Below are positions 1,841-64,000 of a DNA stretch of 64,000 bases, piece after piece. Source of the stretch: a virus. Numbering within the stretch: position 1 is the first letter of the stretch; every line of letters begins with the position of its first letter. The notes under the pieces were generated by a model. That model did no database searches, was not told the origin of the DNA, and was given only the letters and a program-made list of their open reading frames with translations. Made by a program: the position numbers and the translations under genes. Where the stretch lies: the IMG/VR virus record IMGVR_UViG_3300033998_000198, positions 32,001 through 96,000 of that record, one strand, 5' to 3'.

Positions 1841-2638
1841 ATGGATATGGGAAACGTCTTCAAGGACGACGAATTGCTTGATAGAGTGTATAATGAATAT
1901 TTCGGAGAGAAGGAAAGCCCTCCGGAAAAAGCTGTACAACAGACTGAAGACCTGAAAGGTTATACATACAGGGAGTACAGCAAACGTAACGGATTAGTTG
2001 AGGGTACCGGCGACATACCTGGTTCAAATAAACAGAGATGGCTTGCGGAAGATAACATAGATGATGTCGATGAACTTGCAGAACACATCAGACTTATACT
2101 GAATGCTGCGTGGGGAGACAATTGGGGAGAGTTTGGTCCTGAGCTGAAAGAGGGTGAAAACCCTGAAGACATTCAGTTACCACAGATAACTTACGACGTT
2201 GTTACGAGGATCATTCCCGACAAGAAACCATTAAAACCTATTCTTATGGATACGGTTCAGGAGATTGTAAACGGGAAGCCCACCGGAGATTATTTTAATC
2301 TCTACCGTCAATGGTTTGACAGCGTAATAGAGTTTAATATCTGTGGAGCGAACAGTCTCGAAACACGACGGCTCATGAAGAAATTCGAGACGATCCTGGC
2401 AACATACACAGGGCATCTCAAGAAAGTCGGAGCAAGCGAAATCCTGTTTCTAAAAGAAGTACACCCAACGCAATCATCAAACTTTCGTGAAGGGATACCG
2501 ATGAAGTGTCTTCTGTACTTAGTCAGGATTGAAAGAATAACAGTAGTCAAGACAAGTACAATCAGGAAGATGGAGTTGGCTCTACAAACAGTTAACAATG
2601 CGGGACAAAATTCCGCACCAAAAACCTATAAACTTTAA
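1841..2638 (+). CDS. Putative tail completion/terminator-like protein (265 aa)
   Basis: Start moved from 1787 to ATG 1841 because of the GAGGTG RBS at ~1829-1834. Lies between the two sheath genes; function inferred from position. Confidence 0.5.
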   Translation: MDMGNVFKDDELLDRVYNEYFGEKESPPEKAVQQTEDLKGYTYREYSKRNGLVEGTGDIPGSNKQRWLAEDNIDDVDELAEHIRLILNAAWGDNWGEFGPELKEGENPEDIQLPQITYDVVTRIIPDKKPLKPILMDTVQEIVNGKPTGDYFNLYRQWFDSVIEFNICGANSLETRRLMKKFETILATYTGHLKKVGASEILFLKEVHPTQSSNFREGIPMKCLLYLVRIERITVVKTSTIRKMELALQTVNNAGQNSAPKTYKL

Positions 2639-56706: not shown

Positions 56707-58464
56707 ATGTCGAACTTGATGCAATTATTGAATAAATCAAAGACCATAGATGAAAAGGCTTCAGCTATATTCAGCGAACTTATCGGCCAATACAATCATG
56801 GCGAGATAAAGACTGAAACCGAGCTTTTATACAAAGTCTTCAATGCTTTGAATGATTTCTATGCGTCTATCGGCAAGCCAACATACAAGTTTCGTCCAGC
56901 AAAAGGAACACCTGTGTCCGAACACTACAACTCAATGATAAAAGAAGCTGTTGCTGATATATCGTCAATATTGGCTGAAAGTGACAATCTATCCGATATT
57001 CTTGACCAGTCATTCACCGAAATAGAGGTTGACAGAAAGATGCTCCAGAACAAAATCAAGTATATCGGAAAACTCCTTGACAAAGTAAAGATTGCAGCAC
57101 AGGACTCCAGGAACAGATTGGTTTTTGGAGATTCGTTTGTAAACACGAAACAGATGGATACAGACATGATTAAAGGCATTCCGGCATCTATCAACATCAC
57201 CGAAGGTGTGTTGACATTAAACAAACTTCAGGCAGAAGACTACTCCAGCACATGTGATGTTGAGATACTTTCGGACTCCAATGGGTTTCCTGGTAATACC
57301 CATGTTGCAGACATTCTTGATGGTTCATTGCATTTTAGCGGAGAAGACAATCTTCATATAAACTTAAAGGACATCATCGACGGGAACAATGACACATGGT
57401 TTGAGTATGAAATCTTCTCAGTTACCAACGAAGTTTACGAACAAACTGTTGGTCTTGGATTTAATTATAAGGAAAATGTAAGCTGGATAACCGAAGAAGG
57501 ACCATTAAGGCTTGTTATCAGACTGACACTTAAACAACCAAAAACATGCAATTGGTTGTCGCTGTCTCCGTTTATCCCTGAACATAAAGGCGTTAAAGCA
57601 CCACAGATAAGCAGTATCATAATATCTGACGGTAAAGGTACAGTCCAGAATATAACCTCTGGCAAACGTAGCTTTGACAGTGATATCATATATATCTTCC
57701 AGACTCAGGTATGCAAGACTGTTACAGTTGTGTTTGAGCAGCCTTTATCCTATGATATTAACATAGGCCACTTCTTTTTTACAGAGGTATCGTCATCTAA
57801 TGAGAACTATTTTGATACCACTGAATCAAAAGGCGGCCGTGTAGATGGACCAAGCCCATCTATTGAACTGCTCGGATTAAAATACGACAGCAAGGCGAAG
57901 AAAGTCGTTAATCCTTCCTATACCGAAGGTTCTAACTTTATTGACGACGCAAAAGTTAAGAAGGAACTATTTACATTTCCTTCAGATACAGCCAATATAA
58001 AGGCCGGAAAAGAGATACTGCCTGCATCAAGATATCACATAGGCATCAAGGGGATCAATATATCCTGTTACACCTTTGACCAGTCAAGTGAGTATATATC
58101 CACAGCATATGAGTCTGATGAATCTATAGCTACGGTTTCCCTGGATGTAACTGAAATGATACCACGAAGTTATGGTGAAGGCGAATGGATCAAATATAGT
58201 ATCTCAGTTGATGACGGACAAAACTGGTATCCGATTGTTCCTACATTCAAATCATATGCCGGCAAATCCGTTTATTATATCAACAGTAATACTCCGGTAG
58301 AGCTAAGGCACCCCGCAAATGGCTATATTGAAACCGGGAGCGACGTATATTCGTTAAGGCTCAAAATAGAACTATCAAGACCTACAGGTGTAAATGATGT
58401 ATACACTACTCCTATTGTTTCGGGATATAATATCAAAGTAACCACTGGAGGGAAGAAAAAATGA
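56707..58464 (+). CDS. Appendage-family paralog (585 aa)
   Basis: YNSMIKEAVADI, IIDGNNDTWF and LRLKIELSRP...TPIVSGY motifs. Confidence 0.6.
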   Translation: MSNLMQLLNKSKTIDEKASAIFSELIGQYNHGEIKTETELLYKVFNALNDFYASIGKPTYKFRPAKGTPVSEHYNSMIKEAVADISSILAESDNLSDILDQSFTEIEVDRKMLQNKIKYIGKLLDKVKIAAQDSRNRLVFGDSFVNTKQMDTDMIKGIPASINITEGVLTLNKLQAEDYSSTCDVEILSDSNGFPGNTHVADILDGSLHFSGEDNLHINLKDIIDGNNDTWFEYEIFSVTNEVYEQTVGLGFNYKENVSWITEEGPLRLVIRLTLKQPKTCNWLSLSPFIPEHKGVKAPQISSIIISDGKGTVQNITSGKRSFDSDIIYIFQTQVCKTVTVVFEQPLSYDINIGHFFFTEVSSSNENYFDTTESKGGRVDGPSPSIELLGLKYDSKAKKVVNPSYTEGSNFIDDAKVKKELFTFPSDTANIKAGKEILPASRYHIGIKGINISCYTFDQSSEYISTAYESDESIATVSLDVTEMIPRSYGEGEWIKYSISVDDGQNWYPIVPTFKSYAGKSVYYINSNTPVELRHPANGYIETGSDVYSLRLKIELSRPTGVNDVYTTPIVSGYNIKVTTGGKKK

Positions 58465-60458
58465 GTATTAGTCAAAGACAAATCCAAACGGTAACCGATA
58501 AGGCGGTGGAAACTTTGCTAAAGGCCGGACAACTGCCTAATACTGCTGATATTAACAAGTATGTCGATACATTCTTTGCCGGTAAAACTCCCGGGCTGCC
58601 TTATTACAGACCAACAGAAGTTGCAGAAGGAGAAGTTTCAGATCCTGATAGCTACAACAGAATGTTTCAGGATCTCAAAACAGACCTTGATACAATTTTT
58701 TCTGAGAACATATACCAGAATAATAGAATTGTATCAATGTTTGATTACTATGCAACTGAGAAGGAACGCCTGGATGCAGCGGTTGAAAAACTGCAACTGA
58801 GAGTTGACGGTCTGCTCGATTCCCTAAAGTCCAGTAAAGCAACTGAAGGATTCATTGAATCATTTAATAATTTCTATGGAGTTGAGCTATACGGCGATAA
58901 GGCCCGAAATATTCCGAAGACTTCTGCTTTTGTCGACCTTGTGCAGAGAAAAGTATATAATGAGAAGCTGACACGACCGCAAGATAAGATTGATATTTCA
59001 TCAGCCTCAATAACTATAACTCCTGTAACAACCATTAACGGCTCAACTGTCCTTGGTGCTGCCGAGAATATATTAAAAGATTCAACCAATGAAACCTGTA
59101 CGTGGATATTCACCAAAAACGGAGACGGAGAATGTATTATAGAGCTGCTTGTAAAGATGAAAGATGCTGCAACGGCAAGTTCTGTTGTAATTAACACCAA
59201 GTCAACAAAGGCTGCCAATATTAGCCTTCAGATATCTGAAGATGATGTTAATTATAAAGACTTAATGGATATTGATACAGCTTCGTTTGCTGAATGGAAT
59301 TTTAACAGAACGCCTGTGAAATTTATGAAGTTCAGAATTAAGAAATATGAGCCTGATGGCGATACCGGTTCTTCAAGTGAATATTACTTTACAATCTGCA
59401 ATATATCGCTTGTAAACGACAATTTCATGAACAAGAATGTATTTGTCAGTAAACCGATAACCATAAACAAAATCCCCGACAAGGCTACATTGATAACGGA
59501 AGACGTAATCTATCCAAATACCGATATCAAATATTATCTTGGGATAGACAACGGGATCGACAAAGTTGACTGGAGATTAGTTCAAAGCGGAGTGCCATAT
59601 GACTTTGGCCTTCTTACTCCAAGACGTGAGATTGTTACCAACAATGTAAGTCCTTACAACTATGACGGCAAAGTGTCGAGGATATGCAAACTTCATGAGA
59701 ATACGGACAAAAATACAATTAACCTTATGCTTGGATACCAGATGTGGTTTCATGAAAGGTTCAGTTTGCCTGACTCTGTAGTAAATGAAACCGACGCTTC
59801 TGGGAGAAATATCTTCGAACCAGGAATTGGCCAAATGATTTACCCAAAGATCGGCAATTCATTCTATGATTGCGAGATATACGATCTCAATGTTAAGGCT
59901 GGAGAGCTGAACGTATATACACAGTATGTAATATGCGGTCAGGATGTTTCTATCAGTCATAGAAAAATCATTGGCAGCGTGAAGCATTCGATTTATGTCA
60001 ATAATATCGTAGTGCAGCCAATAGACGGGAAGTATACGATCAATCTGGTAAAGGGTATAAATAAAGTCCAAATGTGCATTTATTCATATTCAGACACAAC
60101 AGTGTCCCACAATATCAATATGAAGAACGCTTCATTTGATATTTATTGTAGGCTTGCACTCAGGCAGGTTACAGAACACAACCTTATATCCAACACTAAG
60201 GACGAGGATCTGAATTTCTTCGCTGTAGATTCAGAAGGGTATATTATTGTGAAGTACGACCCGAAAAAAGCCGGGTTGTGTTACAATATAAATAATGATG
60301 ATTTGATTCGTTATGTAGTTGAGTATAAATATATACCGAACGATGTATTAACTGCCTACCCGGATAATACTCTGAAGATCAGGGTAATGGCGACGCTGAC
60401 AAGTTCGTATGACGACATTTCGCCTCAAATCATGAACTACAGGATTATATCTGAATAG
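58461..60458 (+). CDS. Appendage-family paralog (665 aa)
   Basis: YNRMFQDLKTDL, ILKDSTNETCTW and IRVMATLTSS...SPQIMNY motifs. Confidence 0.6.
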   Translation: MSISQRQIQTVTDKAVETLLKAGQLPNTADINKYVDTFFAGKTPGLPYYRPTEVAEGEVSDPDSYNRMFQDLKTDLDTIFSENIYQNNRIVSMFDYYATEKERLDAAVEKLQLRVDGLLDSLKSSKATEGFIESFNNFYGVELYGDKARNIPKTSAFVDLVQRKVYNEKLTRPQDKIDISSASITITPVTTINGSTVLGAAENILKDSTNETCTWIFTKNGDGECIIELLVKMKDAATASSVVINTKSTKAANISLQISEDDVNYKDLMDIDTASFAEWNFNRTPVKFMKFRIKKYEPDGDTGSSSEYYFTICNISLVNDNFMNKNVFVSKPITINKIPDKATLITEDVIYPNTDIKYYLGIDNGIDKVDWRLVQSGVPYDFGLLTPRREIVTNNVSPYNYDGKVSRICKLHENTDKNTINLMLGYQMWFHERFSLPDSVVNETDASGRNIFEPGIGQMIYPKIGNSFYDCEIYDLNVKAGELNVYTQYVICGQDVSISHRKIIGSVKHSIYVNNIVVQPIDGKYTINLVKGINKVQMCIYSYSDTTVSHNINMKNASFDIYCRLALRQVTEHNLISNTKDEDLNFFAVDSEGYIIVKYDPKKAGLCYNINNDDLIRYVVEYKYIPNDVLTAYPDNTLKIRVMATLTSSYDDISPQIMNYRIISE

Positions 60459-60469
60459 GAGTGAGGTCA

Positions 60470-60721
60470 GTGATATATCCGATTGGGGTAAAAGAAAACA
60501 GTAGATACCGTGGTCCGATAGAAAGCATTAAAACACTTAGAACCAACGGTGATATTGAACAGAACATCAAACTGCTGTATAATAAATTTATGGAGCTTGA
60601 GGAATTAAATACCTATATTAAAACAGTCCTTGATGATAACAACATATACAAGTCTCACAGGGATATCAAGGTAATAGACGGCAATACGAGCTCATTTATA
60701 AAGGAGGCTGACAACAGTTAA
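60470..60721 (+). CDS. Small structural protein whose last codons are supplied by the inserted element (83 aa)
   Basis: GTG 60470 with GGAG RBS (alternative GTG 60461). Ends KEADNS* using element sequence; the reconstructed empty allele ends KEAMVNG*, overlapping the ATG of 62641. Confidence 0.55.
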   Translation: MIYPIGVKENSRYRGPIESIKTLRTNGDIEQNIKLLYNKFMELEELNTYIKTVLDDNNIYKSHRDIKVIDGNTSSFIKEADNS

Positions 60722-60775
60722 GAAAAATTTATAAAATTTTATAAAAATCTATACACAATTTATAAAAAATCCCAC

Positions 60776-60943
60776 CTATTTGGTAGGATTGGTATATTTG
60801 ATAATTAAATCTTGTAATGCTTCATCAAGCAATTTAGACTTAGGAATTTTAGTGTCTTTGCTTAACTTTTCAAATGCTTCATAGATTTTTATATCTACTG
60901 CGTTTGAGATGGGTTTTCTGTTTTTAAGACCTCGATTATTCAT
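60776..60943 (-). CDS. Ribbon-helix-helix DNA-binding protein (55 aa)
   Basis: ATG at 60943 preceded by AGGAGGTG (60949-60956, minus strand); MNNRGLKNRKPISNAVDIKIYEAFEKLSKDTKIPKSKLLDEALQDLIIKY is a typical clostridial RHH pattern. Confidence 0.8.
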   Translation of the reverse strand: MNNRGLKNRKPISNAVDIKIYEAFEKLSKDTKIPKSKLLDEALQDLIIKYTNPTK

Positions 60944-60969
60944 AAAATCACCTCCTAAAAAATATTGTA

Positions 60970-61015
60970 CAACTACTTTTAAATACTTGCAACTACTTGT
61001 AGTTTGTAGTAAAAT
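60970..61015 (+). promoter_or_regulatory. Sigma-A-like promoter for tnpB overlapped by AACTAC/GTAGTT operator-like repeats
   Basis: TTGCAA (60987-60992) - 17 bp - TAAAAT (61010-61015). CAACTACTT direct repeats at 60970 and 60990; inverted GTAGTT at 60999 and GTAGT at 61006. Confidence 0.6.
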
Positions 61016-61028
61016 AATAATTAGGAGG

Positions 61029-61258
61029 TTCACTATAGTTAATAAAAAGTTATAAAAAGTCATAAATTAATGAAATATGAAAAATCAGCATAATTCACTT
61101 AACGAATTATGTTGGTATGTACGGTGTCGTTACATCGGAATTTAAGCCTTTGGAGAGTCATACCAAACGCAAGTAGGATTCCGAAAGCGGACTCTATGAA
61201 TAAGGAAAAGAACATAAAAGTTATAATTTTATAACTTTTTATAAGTTTCTTATAACGG
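61029..61258 (+). mobile_element. Nested 230-bp MITE-like mini-element (left end + tnpB 3' remnant + omegaRNA/right end)
   Basis: GG at both junctions (TTAGGAGG|TTCACTATAGTTAATAAAAAG...TATAACGG|TGAAACGAATG). Left end aligns with the outer left end (GG + 10 nt + TTAA). Contains remnant KYEKSA* versus tnpB end NYGKSIA*. Removal restores AGGAGGTG-AAACGA-ATG. Confidence 0.8.
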
Positions 61259-61278
61259 TGAAACGAATGATTAGAACC
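61090..61278 (+). ncRNA. Second omegaRNA-like scaffold (inner element) with predicted guide TGAAACGAATGATTAGAACC
   Basis: Homologous to 62455-62631: identical GGAATTTAAGCCTTTGGAG (61137-61155 vs 62495-62513), shared CCGAAAG hairpin, covarying stems (CGGTGT-CGTT-ACATCG vs CCGATT-CGTT-AGTCGG). The 5' boundary is approximate. Confidence 0.7.
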
Positions 61279-62454
61279 TACAAAGTAATGCTTTTACCTA
61301 ATAACAAACAAAGAATAAAGCTGTTTGAATGTGCTGGAGTTGCAAGATGGGCATACAACTGGGCATTAGAACAGCAACAGATTAACTATAAAAATGGTGG
61401 TAAATTTTTAGATGATAAAACTTTAAGAAAAAGGCTAACAGAACTTAAACAGACAGAAGAATACAAGTGGCTTAATGACTATTCAAATAACATTACAAAA
61501 CAAGCAATAAAAGATGCCTGTATTTCTTATAAGAACTTCTTTGAAGGTAGAGCCAAATTACCAAAGTTTAAATCTAAGAAAAGAAGTAAACAAAGTTTTT
61601 ATCAAGATACTGATAAAATTGTTGTAACAGATACTCATGTTAAATTAGAGAAACTAACTACTTCTAAAAAGAAAAACAAACAAAAATTAAATTGGATTAA
61701 ATTATCTGAAATAGGCAGAATGCCGATAGGTGAAAACATAAAATACTCTAATCCACGCATAACATTTGATGGTCTAAATTGGTGGTTATCAATAGGAGTA
61801 GAAGAAGATATAAAGCAAGATAGTTCTAAGTATTCAGAAGGGATTGGTGTAGATTTAGGAGTAAAGGATTTAGCAGTAGTTAGCACAGGGCAAAAGTTTA
61901 AGAATATAAACAAGTCAAACAAAGTAAAGAAACTTGAAAAGATGCTTAGAAAACTACAAAGAAAACTATCTAAAAAATATGAGTTGAATAAAATTGAAAC
62001 AGAAGGAGGTGAATACCGTTACAGAAAGACTAAAAATATTAAAAAGTTAGAATTCCTTGTTCTAAAGGTGCGAAGAAGGCTTAAAAACATAAGGCACAAT
62101 TATATTCATCAGACAACTACATCTTTGGTGAGAAGCAAGCCTGAATATGTAGTAATGGAAAGTTTAAATACTTGCGGGATGTTGAAGAATAGAAAACTGT
62201 CAAAGGCAATACAAGAACAAGTTTTTCATGAGTTTAAAAGACAGATGGAATATAAGTGTGCATGGAATGGAATTAAGTTTATACTTGCAGATAGATTTTA
62301 TCCTTCAAGCAAAACTTGCAGTAGATGTGGCAATGTAAAGGATACCCTATCCTTATCAGAAAGAACCTTTATATGTGATAGATGTGGATATGAAATAGAT
62401 AGGGACTTAAATGCAAGTATAAATCTTAAAAACTATGGTAAATCAATAGCATAG
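61267..62454 (+). CDS. tnpB: RNA-guided endonuclease TnpB (IS607-associated; 395 aa)
   Basis: MIRTYKVMLLPNNKQ start (ATG 61267 preferred to GTG 61258). RuvC triad GVDLG, VVMESL and DRDLNAS(IN) intact; CSRCG/CDRCG zinc finger; FYPSSKTC motif. Confidence 0.95.
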   Translation: MIRTYKVMLLPNNKQRIKLFECAGVARWAYNWALEQQQINYKNGGKFLDDKTLRKRLTELKQTEEYKWLNDYSNNITKQAIKDACISYKNFFEGRAKLPKFKSKKRSKQSFYQDTDKIVVTDTHVKLEKLTTSKKKNKQKLNWIKLSEIGRMPIGENIKYSNPRITFDGLNWWLSIGVEEDIKQDSSKYSEGIGVDLGVKDLAVVSTGQKFKNINKSNKVKKLEKMLRKLQRKLSKKYELNKIETEGGEYRYRKTKNIKKLEFLVLKVRRRLKNIRHNYIHQTTTSLVRSKPEYVVMESLNTCGMLKNRKLSKAIQEQVFHEFKRQMEYKCAWNGIKFILADRFYPSSKTCSRCGNVKDTLSLSERTFICDRCGYEIDRDLNASINLKNYGKSIA

Positions 62455-62651
62455 CACCAGACGCAACTATTGATATGTACCGATTCGTTAGTCGGGAATT
62501 TAAGCCTTTGGAGTGTCAAGCAAACATGAGTAGGTTTATCCGAAAGAGGACATGATGAACAAGGAAGGAAACATAAACTTTTATAAGGTTTAAGGAAAAT
62601 CTTATAGAATTTTATAAGTTTTCTGTAACGGCAATGGTCAATGGATAACGT
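62455..62651 (+). ncRNA. Cognate omegaRNA of tnpB with predicted guide CAATGGTCAATGGATAACGT from the right flank
   Basis: Structured region between the tnpB stop and the right end (TAACGG at 62626-62631); hairpins covary with the inner copy. The guide position follows the established TnpB rule. Confidence 0.75.
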
Positions 62652-63873
62652 ACCATCCTTTAGAAAACAAGAAGTAAAGTTCAGATCAACTGCATCCAGC
62701 GAACAATACAATCAGATGCAGGACAGTGCACTTTATGATATCCTGAATCTTTTCAACAAAGCAAACAAGCTGGAAAGCGATCTTTTAGACACAAAAGACA
62801 TCGTCTTTACTGAGAATAAGTATATGCAGTTGAAGATCCAATCCCTTGAAGCAAAGTTGGCCACGATGGCACAGCTATATAAAGATCTGACTACTGCCGG
62901 GAATAAATTAATGACGCTCAACGTATATCCGAACCAGATGTATATAAACAGCTCATCCAGCGTTCCTGCATTTGTAGATACTGCCTGCATGGATGTAACG
63001 CTTCCGTTTGCCTCAAAAACAAGCAAGGTTCATGTATATGACGACGTATCCGACACTGTGTTTATTCCTGATTCATTGGTTGCTGAGAACAGTATAATAA
63101 CACCGACCAAAGGAATCATCGAAATTACAGAGAATGATATCATGAATGCGTTCAACGGAAACAACAGTTCTTACTGGAGAAAAAAAGTAATTACCGACAA
63201 TACTGTAAACGAAGTAAACATGCAGATTGTCATAGGGCTTCCTGAAGACATTATATCAAACAGGGAAATCAATGCAGTTATCTTCTCTCCATTCCCATAT
63301 GGCTCACTTGATCTGGTAAATATCGAATACAAATTGTTCGGCGACTGGACCCAGATTCCTTCATTTAGCGAGCACTCCGAAGGAACGCTCGAATCATATT
63401 CCGATGTTTTCGGTAATATAAGTTATAAACCGATTATTCCAGGAGTAGGTAACATTAAGTTCTGTTTCAATGACATCAGTGCATCTGAACTCAGAATCAC
63501 TGTAAGACAAAGAAACTACACACAGGAGAATGGTAACCGGGTATTTTATCTTGGTGCCCGTGAAATTGAAATAGTCAATTATAAGTACAATAAAGATGTA
63601 GCTACATTCTATACAAAAGTTATATTCCCAGGCAATCCTGTTAAGGTTGTGTGTGATATACAATCTATATTGAATAACCAGGGAGAAATCGGGAAGAATG
63701 TTGTACAGTATGAAATGTTCACACTGGACGACTATGATCGGCCATCAAAGATAACAAAGGGATTTCCCTTTGAAATATCTAACGGTAAAATGCTTGTCAA
63801 GTGTGACATTTACAAAAATAATACTTCGCCGGCATTAAATAAGATAAAAGTTATTTATAAAGAAAAAATATAG
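62641..63873 (+). CDS. Appendage-family paralog (410 aa), separated from its native RBS by the insertion
   Basis: YNQMQDSALYDI, AFNGNNSSYW and MLVKCDIYKN..SPALNKI motifs; only ACGG remains upstream as an SD. Confidence 0.65.
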   Translation: MDNVPSFRKQEVKFRSTASSEQYNQMQDSALYDILNLFNKANKLESDLLDTKDIVFTENKYMQLKIQSLEAKLATMAQLYKDLTTAGNKLMTLNVYPNQMYINSSSSVPAFVDTACMDVTLPFASKTSKVHVYDDVSDTVFIPDSLVAENSIITPTKGIIEITENDIMNAFNGNNSSYWRKKVITDNTVNEVNMQIVIGLPEDIISNREINAVIFSPFPYGSLDLVNIEYKLFGDWTQIPSFSEHSEGTLESYSDVFGNISYKPIIPGVGNIKFCFNDISASELRITVRQRNYTQENGNRVFYLGAREIEIVNYKYNKDVATFYTKVIFPGNPVKVVCDIQSILNNQGEIGKNVVQYEMFTLDDYDRPSKITKGFPFEISNGKMLVKCDIYKNNTSPALNKIKVIYKEKI

Positions 63874-63884
63874 GAGGTGCTCTT

Positions 63885-64000
63885 ATGAAAAAGACGCTAT
63901 GTTTGCTGCTTGTTCTTGTTATTGCTTTTGTTTCAATACCTGTTTTTGCTGTGTATGACAATTCTAAAGTTTACACTGTGATTGGCAATGACAAGTATTA
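63885..64000 (+). CDS. 3'-truncated protein with Sec signal peptide
   Basis: TAGGAGGTG RBS; MKKTLCLLLVLVIAFVSIPVFA|VYDNSK (basic N-region, hydrophobic core, V-F-A cleavage site). Confidence 0.7.
   Translation, partial: MKKTLCLLLVLVIAFVSIPVFAVYDNSKVYTVIGNDKY

Follow-up and report, generated by a model that had tools for sequence, protein, structure and literature searches.

Why should two mobile elements of one phage, the second nested within the first, both come to lie between a Shine–Dalgarno (SD) sequence and the start codon that it serves? The question is raised by a locus near the end of the 64,000-nucleotide window analysed here, which comprises bases 32001–96000 of the 131,934-bp IMG/VR virus record IMGVR_UViG_3300033998_000198 (estimated completeness 61%). 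An outer element of 1924 bp, carrying the gene for the RNA-guided protein TnpB, has cut off a virion structural protein gene from its SD, and a 230-bp mini-element devoid of genes has done the same to tnpB itself. The original prediction, made from these two events, was that IS607-type elements of this family insert at the GG of AGGAGG, that their target and the transposon-adjacent motif (TAM) of TnpB may be (G)GAGG, in other words ribosome-binding sites, and that coding sequence would thereby be spared; chance was retained as an alternative. The placement observation is confirmed and its interpretation is supported. It is highly probable that both insertions are explained by IS607/TnpB elements with RAGATH-18 guide RNA scaffolds which target GGAGG and are hence placed between SD and ATG.

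Empty sites in a natural phage population

The outer and inner elements align with each other at both ends, the right-hand similarity ending at GG. With a slash marking each junction, the outer element reads ...TTTATAAAGGAGG / CTGACAACAGTTAAG ... TCTGTAACGG / CAATGGTCA ATG, and the inner ...AATAATTAGGAGG / TTCACTATAGTTAAT ... CTTATAACGG / TGAAACGA ATG. Four DNA runs of one subsurface metagenome study contain the region, and contigs assembled from them, not raw reads, were placed on the window. Contigs from samples X1 and X4 bridge the outer site, joining 60705 to 62630 and skipping exactly 1924 bp. A 919-nt contig from sample X3, with 90 nt on its shorter side, bridges the inner site by joining 61026 to 61257, so that exactly 230 bp are skipped. 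The joined contigs rebuild AAGGAGG+CAATGGTCA-ATG and TAGGAGG+TGAAACGA-ATG, respectively, with a single AGGAGG retained in each. The position of the GG is ambiguous at both joints; there is no target-site duplication, and GG is present at both junctions and in the empty target. The reconstruction proposed for the outer junction, a 9-nt spacing and a restored upstream open reading frame (ORF) whose end, ...KEAMVNG, overlaps the next start, is thus borne out by the contig joints and by orthologous ORFs ending in ...VNG, and that for the inner junction by the X3 contig and an uninterrupted site in Caloramator.

These uninterrupted sites come from other genomes. In element-free orthologous phage loci, GGAGG is followed after 8–9 nt by ATGGATAA, the upstream 84-aa ORF ending in ...VNG with its stop codon overlapping ATGGATAA. 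A relative from Caloramator quimbayensis (L041), whose TnpB is 88% identical, reads ...GAGGTGAAACGA-ATG without interruption. The orthologs were found in a protein database; a peptide-pattern scan of viral contigs with the 410-aa virion protein gave no relatives, and megablast of window positions 58400–64000 against the GenBank phage collection gave no match. Both sets of empty sites bear on the suggestion that the shared AGGAGG is a terminus of the element rather than a host target. The hexamer is identical directly 5' of both aligned left ends, and the removal of six more bases would leave the upstream ORF in frame. This reading nevertheless has next to no chance of being correct: it is refuted by the contigs which keep one AGGAGG, by the orthologous phage loci with GGAGG, 8–9 nt and ATG, and by L041 with GAGG+TGAAACGA+ATG, and the flanks vary within the family (GGGGG, GAAGG, AGAGG, AAAGG).

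One and the same phage population contains three haplotypes: an empty site, a site with the outer element alone, and a site with both elements. From these we infer that the outer insertion came first and the mini-element later. Both insertions are still polymorphic in a natural phage population. The depths of the contigs are suggestive only, whilst the bridging contigs are taken as fact. In X4 the flanking contigs have depths of ~208–223 and the element contigs 6–7.5; in X1 the empty joint has a depth of 13 versus 33–35 for the element. In X3 the element contigs and the flanks are equally deep (~50) and no contig bridges the empty outer site, so that the occupied form appears to predominate in this sample. 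Transposase-less TnpB elements are, on the evidence of the three haplotypes, still turning over in a phage. Five RNA runs contain only 5–7% of the sampled words.

Two further observations were made in the same samples. C>T variants common to X3 and X4 lie at window positions 60565, 62331 and 62802, in the flanks and in the element, indicating that the insertions are present or absent in no fewer than two strain backgrounds of the phage. For the mini-element (window 61028–61300) the summed contig depth is 10^3–10^5, compared with 50–220 in the phage flanks, across the four metagenomes; the mini-element family is therefore present in very many copies in that subsurface community. Loose contig ends at 61023 and 61024 reveal at least three other mini-element 5' flanks ending in (A)GGAGG.

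A preference for GGAGG across the family

A search of the whole viral record found two further complete copies outside the window. The third copy, of 1.6 kb and 66% identical in DNA to the outer element, encodes a 373-aa TnpB and an Arc-like protein of its own; it is bounded by AATAGGGAGG / ... GTAACGG / GTAATCTA ATG. The fourth, a mini-element of 547 bp, reads AACAAGGAGG / ... GTAACGG / TTACAAAC ATG at its junctions. All four complete copies are preceded by GGAGG, in (A/G)GGAGG flanks, with an ATG 8–9 nt past the right end (RE), and all four contain the RAGATH-18 motif (RF03064), scoring 53.5–69.3 bits where the gathering score is 44.9. Since GGAGG accounts for only 185 of the 10,933 GG sites of this genome (1.7%), four out of four copies at this motif gives P ~1e-7.

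The test was extended to 112 loci encoding TnpB relatives, of which 32 are viral and 80 bacterial; Caloramator, Anoxybacillus, Lachnospiraceae and Selenomonadaceae are among the sources. Left ends (LEs) were placed with an nhmmer model and duplicates removed, leaving 63 non-redundant junctions with GG. The 5'-flank logo which the original prediction had called for displays G at -5 in 83%, G at -4 in 79% and A at -3 in 78%, with A at -6 in 52% and A/T-rich sequence further upstream; the enrichment is in GAGG and not in GG alone. Among the 5-mers at 67 junctions GGAGG occurs 34 times, followed by GGGGG (7), GAAGG, AGAGG and GAGGG (5 each), nearly all of the rest being purine-rich with GG; AAAGG is also found among the family flanks. 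GGAGG makes up 1.5% of the GG sites in reconstructed flanks, and comparison of the junctions with random GG sites gives P = 3e-34. A long ORF starts 1–13 nt past the RE, mostly at 7–8 nt, in 46 of the 56 elements with both ends. This logo and these start codons uphold the proposal that the family targets (G)GAGG sites which are ribosome-binding sites. That ~80% of independent insertions sit 1–13 nt upstream of an ORF start constitutes a quantified family rule; full-text literature searches combining TnpB or IS607 with Shine–Dalgarno or ribosome-binding-site terms returned no paper stating it, only unrelated ones.

Coincidence in SD-rich DNA was a reasonable concern when the observation consisted of two events. 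It is now refuted statistically, by four of four copies at a motif forming 1.7% of GG sites, by the family-wide probability, and by the at least three additional mini-element flanks with (A)GGAGG, and can be set aside with near certainty. The prediction that coding sequence would be spared holds only approximately, as the SD of the virion gene lies within the 3' end of an 86-aa ORF, whose tail is altered by the insertion.

A more serious competitor is survivorship, which we regard as possible, although distinctly the less likely explanation. Here the transposase TnpA would require only GG, insertions within genes would be purged, and copies beside a usable TAM would be kept by homing; as SDs hold much of the GG in AT-rich intergenic DNA, a pattern of GGAGG followed by ATG would result. 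IS607 of Helicobacter pylori prefers only (G)GG (PMC6188088), every locus analysed is a surviving element, and the enrichment for functional SDs exceeds that for the pentamer itself: 23 of 26 GGAGG insertions lie at SD-like sites, compared with 34% of background GGAGG (P = 1e-8). On the other hand, insertions follow the second GG of GGAGG rather than the first, and the TnpA of a Clostridium botulinum IStron itself prefers TGGG, which is also the TAM (10.1101/2023.11.20.567912), a precedent for co-evolved TnpA specificity. Furthermore, predicted anti-SD pairing over 46 sites averages -10.9 kcal/mol before insertion and -4.3 kcal/mol after it, the downstream genes being intact. Loss of the SD should carry a cost of its own, and purging of genic insertions alone therefore explains the bias poorly.

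Family membership and the TAM

The elements have the hallmarks of IS607: GG junctions without target duplication and, instead of long perfect terminal inverted repeats, short subterminal repeats, TTATAA(A/G), in both LE and RE, conserved across ~60 loci. They also have those of the RAGATH-18 clade, whose guide is an RNA derived from the right end (reRNA): a RAGATH-18 motif directly 3' of tnpB, extending to the RE, and a TnpB of ~390 aa (395 aa here) with a D-E-D triad, related to that of ISFba1. In place of the IS607 TnpA, with its MerR-like helix-turn-helix (HTH) and resolvase catalytic domain, the window copies have a ribbon-helix-helix (RHH) gene. Relatives with the same LE and RE, and with the LE ~700 nt upstream of tnpB, encode a MerR-HTH plus Resolvase protein (226 aa in L086; also L044), which by domain content is the IS607 transposase architecture. 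These sequence features place the elements in the RAGATH-18 (reRNA) clade of the IS607 family.

The closest solved structure to the outer TnpB is ISFba1 TnpB (PDB 8IAZ), with which it aligns over residues 2–389 (E 1e-68). The catalytic residues D196/E298/D380 pair with D194/E290/D371 of ISFba1, and the ISFba1 TAM contacts K83 and Y117 correspond to K78 and Y112. Gaps interrupt the alignment around N121/N122, however, so that the TAM is not readable from the protein sequence. TAMs have been measured for this clade: 18 of 22 strains have 5'-AGGAG, and the TAM of ISWco, ISCco and ISFba2 is 5'-GAGGG, which the paper counts in 4 of 22 strains (Ren et al. 2024, Cell Res, PMC11061315). Single TAM mutations abolish ISFba1 cleavage, and the authors remark on 'AG-rich cognate TAMs adjacent to the putative LE' (PMC11061315). 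Table S2 of that paper lists reRNAs ending in ...AACGG for the GAGGG group (...CAGTAACGG for ISCco and ISFba2, ...GGCAACGG for ISWco) and in ...GCAG for the AGGAG group. SD sequences, ribosome-binding sites and placement relative to start codons are not mentioned in PMC11061315. The TAM inferred in the original prediction was thus essentially already published for the clade, and the natural 5' flanks are compatible with the published TAMs, albeit offset by one register. Natural flanks can serve to cross-check TAM register, which is of use for genome editing.

The right end, ...TTTTATAAGTTTTC(A/T)GTAACGG, hardly varies across the family loci. Its end, TAACGG, is unlike GGAGG at -3 to -5, and this mismatch fits a TAM which would let TnpB spare the occupied site. 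At the target of the tnpB-bearing outer element, the sequence directly 3' of the proposed TAM position is CAATGGTCAATGGATAACGT.

A proposed mechanism and its weaknesses

IS607 elements move as circles, with the serine recombinase TnpA exchanging strands at GG, which leaves GG at both junctions and no target duplication. TnpB, guided by RNA transcribed across the right end, cuts the empty site, consisting of the TAM and the sequence formerly 3' of the element. The motif of this clade is a purine-rich pentamer ending in GG, with GGAGG as its natural consensus; as this is also the core of the Firmicute SD, elements come to lie between the SD of a gene and its start codon, and the predicted guide spans the spacer and first codons of the downstream gene. 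The outer element entered the SD of a virion structural gene, and the 230-bp mini-element, presumably later, the SD of the outer element's tnpB. For this TnpB the expected TAM is (A)GGAG(G) and the expected guide the 20 nt past the right end, whilst the mini-element would borrow TnpB, its own guide being directed at uninterrupted tnpB leaders. Because no Resolvase match was found anywhere in the 132-kb contig (~61% complete), the phage copies are taken as non-autonomous IS607-family derivatives and the recombinase would presumably be supplied in trans from an IS607 copy of the host. Alternatively, the elements may spread among phage genomes by TnpB cutting and recombinational repair. In this scheme SD-like-TAM-dependent cleavage by TnpB and recombination by TnpA at GG are drawn from the literature on relatives; the architecture, scarless junctions, polymorphic empty sites, logo and placement are drawn from the present data.

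Several considerations weigh against targeting of GGAGG, in addition to the missing resolvase. Positions -1 and -2 are G by the rule used to place the junctions, so only -3 to -5 of the logo are informative. Insertions inherited by related genomes may inflate the counts, and selection may shape a logo built from surviving elements. The TAM ascribed to this TnpB is taken by analogy from clade relatives, and relatives with ...AACGG ends have the TAM GAGGG, whereas the natural flanks are mostly GGAGG, with GAGGG in only 5 of 67. No guide-start register reconciles the two, and the loci closest to ISCco still have GGAGG. The population evidence consists of assembled contigs of one study, and the outer joint has only 27–30 nt on its shorter side; sides of <30 nt can stem from other organisms or repeats. 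Our reading of this short side is that it is a unitig overlap at a branch of the assembly graph.

Another account holds that the element has been domesticated as an RNA-guided regulator of the downstream gene, in the manner of TldR, and is no longer a selfish transposon. In its favour, the predicted guide spans the start of translation of the gene that follows, and the element encodes an Arc-like repressor. The intact RuvC triad and transposon ends, the presence and absence of the insertion within the population, and the diverged copies in this genome that adjoin unrelated genes make such a role very improbable.

Translation of the downstream gene

Insertion deprives the downstream gene of its SD. 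Only 10 of the 46 occupied sites keep a predicted pairing of -6 kcal/mol or stronger (<= -6 kcal/mol); GGTGA is left at the tnpB site, and at some sites GGAG is formed anew from the GG of the RE and a flank starting with AG. No group I intron was detected in loci L001–L004 (Intron_gpI, Rfam, E<=1), and the idea that these are IStrons was dropped; nothing known therefore offsets the cost of splitting SD from ATG. Two other ways of compensating were considered. A ribosome-binding site split by the insertion and rejoined by LE:RE pairing was rejected: although LE and RE do pair when the mini-element and its flanks are folded to minimum energy (z = -4.3), part of the SD is hidden in that structure and ~20 unpaired nt would separate the SD from the AUG. 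Inspection by eye for a short reinitiation ORF ending at the conserved TAA of GTAACGG found none. A virion structural gene without an SD, with no IStron-like mitigation detectable, thus poses the question of how such genes remain expressed.

It is attractive to consider that use of the SD as a TAM is an adaptive strategy, with the elements either keeping the downstream gene expressed by an undescribed mechanism or acting as reversible translational off-switches. A hint in this direction is that the virion gene is conserved though deprived of its SD, yet the X3 contigs include none across the empty outer site, and the depth of the element there approximates that of the flanks. We nevertheless consider this unlikely. 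Were it true, a TAM would be present before nearly every gene, and a target losing its TAM would lose translation, so that escape from homing would be constrained.

Features of the locus and related copies

Table 1. Features at the insertion locus and in related copies. Positions refer to the window unless another locus is named.
Feature	Position	Strand	Evidence and remarks
Upstream 86-aa ORF	60461..60721	+	Last codons replaced by insertion: now ...KEADNS-stop, native ...KEAMVNG-stop (ORF list, sequence, orthologous 84-aa ORFs)
AGGAGG, native SD of virion structural gene; now 5' flank (TAM side) of outer element	60702..60707	+	Sequence; kept in empty-site contigs and orthologous element-free loci
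Outer IS607-family element, 1924 bp, without tnpA: LE, Arc-like RHH gene, tnpB, omega/reRNA, RE ending GTAACGG	60708..62631	+	End alignments; exact 1924-bp skip in contigs; nhmmer LE and RE models
55-aa Arc-like RHH gene, divergent from tnpB, at position of relatives' tnpA	60776..60943	-	Pfam RHH_3 E 1e-12; PHROG 3180 'Arc-like repressor' E 1.8e-13
AGGAGG, SD of tnpB; 5' flank of inner mini-element	61023..61028	+	Sequence; relative L041 uninterrupted: GAGG+TGAAACGA+ATG
Inner 230-bp mini-element: LE, omega-RNA scaffold, RE, no gene; nested in outer element between RHH gene and tnpB	61029..61258	+	End alignments; exact 230-bp skip in X3 contig
RAGATH-18 core, guide-RNA scaffold of mini-element	61147..61207	+	Rfam RF03064, 69.3 bits vs gathering score 44.9 (L001:1947-2007)
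tnpB, 395 aa	61267..62454	+	RuvC triad D196/E298/D380 present; Pfam HTH_OrfB_IS605, OrfB_IS605, Cas12f1-like_TNB; alignment to ISFba1 TnpB
RAGATH-18 core, omega/reRNA of outer element, 3' of tnpB	62505..62566	+	Rfam RF03064, 53.5 bits vs gathering score 44.9 (L001:3305-3366)
Predicted guide-matching target: 9-nt spacer and first codons of downstream gene	62632..62651	+	Inferred from place directly 3' of RE, by analogy with reRNA constructs: 20-nt guide after ...AACGG (PMC11061315 Table S2)
410-aa virion structural protein gene, cut off from its SD by outer element	62641..63873	+	PHROG 19670 'virion structural protein' E 1.9e-76; orthologs 54–65% identical in other phage contigs
547-bp mini-element (L003)	G000:C1:111460-112006	-	One RAGATH-18 match; second, degenerate scaffold-like core ~170 nt upstream; ~250 nt unassigned, possibly structured
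Solo left end, outside window	L004:~1499-1527 = G000:C1:98827-98855	-	1 mismatch to inner LE; after ATATGGGGG
Arc-like RHH homolog	L002:2884-3054	+	Place where bacterial relatives have tnpA
Arc-like RHH homolog	L024:~2258-2407	-	Place where bacterial relatives have tnpA

Both insertions are surrounded by virion structural genes (PHROGs 20243, 21108, 19683 and 19670). Arc-like RHH genes of 55–56 aa, divergent from tnpB, are present in both TnpB-bearing copies of this phage and in the viral locus L024, and the two RHH proteins of this genome are 45% identical. The solo left end runs into unrelated sequence upstream of a putative deaminase gene and has no matching right end; it is probably the remnant of a deleted copy.

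Elsewhere in the family, a 77-bp stretch in a viral contig (L015:2416-2492) consists of an LE fused to an RE (...TTTTCAGTAACGG), follows AAAGGGGG and directly precedes TGAAAATA-ATG of tnpB. It may be a second micro-element nested in the SD of tnpB itself; no outer LE was found upstream of it in this contig. In L019 and L033, the gene whose SD was hit, in the 3' flank after 3847, is a 377-aa ORF starting MLVEKVIKIP..., which might be another TnpB-like protein.

Comparison with known systems

The nearest relatives are ISFba1, ISCco, ISFba2 and ISWco (PMC11061315; PDB 8IAZ), with which the present elements share the TnpB fold, the RuvC triad, the RAGATH-18 scaffold and a purine-rich, SD-like TAM, predicted in the present case. 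The reRNA ends of ISCco and ISFba2 closely match the right end found here. In contrast to ISFba1-type elements, the copies described here lack tnpA, carry an Arc-like RHH gene, reside in a phage, one of them nested, and have GGAGG as natural flank consensus, the published TAM being GAGGG.

The IS607 IStron of C. botulinum (Zedaveinyte et al., bioRxiv 10.1101/2023.11.20.567912) likewise transposes at GG by means of a serine recombinase and is excised without a scar. There, the TnpA target motif is the TnpB TAM, and TnpB cuts the donor joint, thereby retaining the element (10.1101/2023.11.20.567912). Its target and TAM are TGGG, however, and a group I intron splices the element from host transcripts, unlike the situation here. 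IS607 of H. pylori (Kersulyte 2000; Chen et al., eLife 2018, PMC6188088) resembles the present elements in having GG at its termini and target, no duplication and short subterminal repeats, but has no preference past (G)GG, whilst the clade considered here shows G, G and A at -5, -4 and -3. Arc (RHH) repressors have been described in IS605-family transposons (bioRxiv 10.64898/2026.09.24.754181), again as a small RHH gene divergent from tnpB, and elements with only arc and tnpB exist. Those elements have a Y1 transposase, whereas the RHH gene here, of predicted function, belongs to an IS607-type element in phages.

The elements at this locus are thus members of a known family with an already published SD-like TAM, to which population evidence and a quantified family rule are added here. 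The question of how the downstream gene is translated and, above all, the evidence from the phage population make up the main value of the case.

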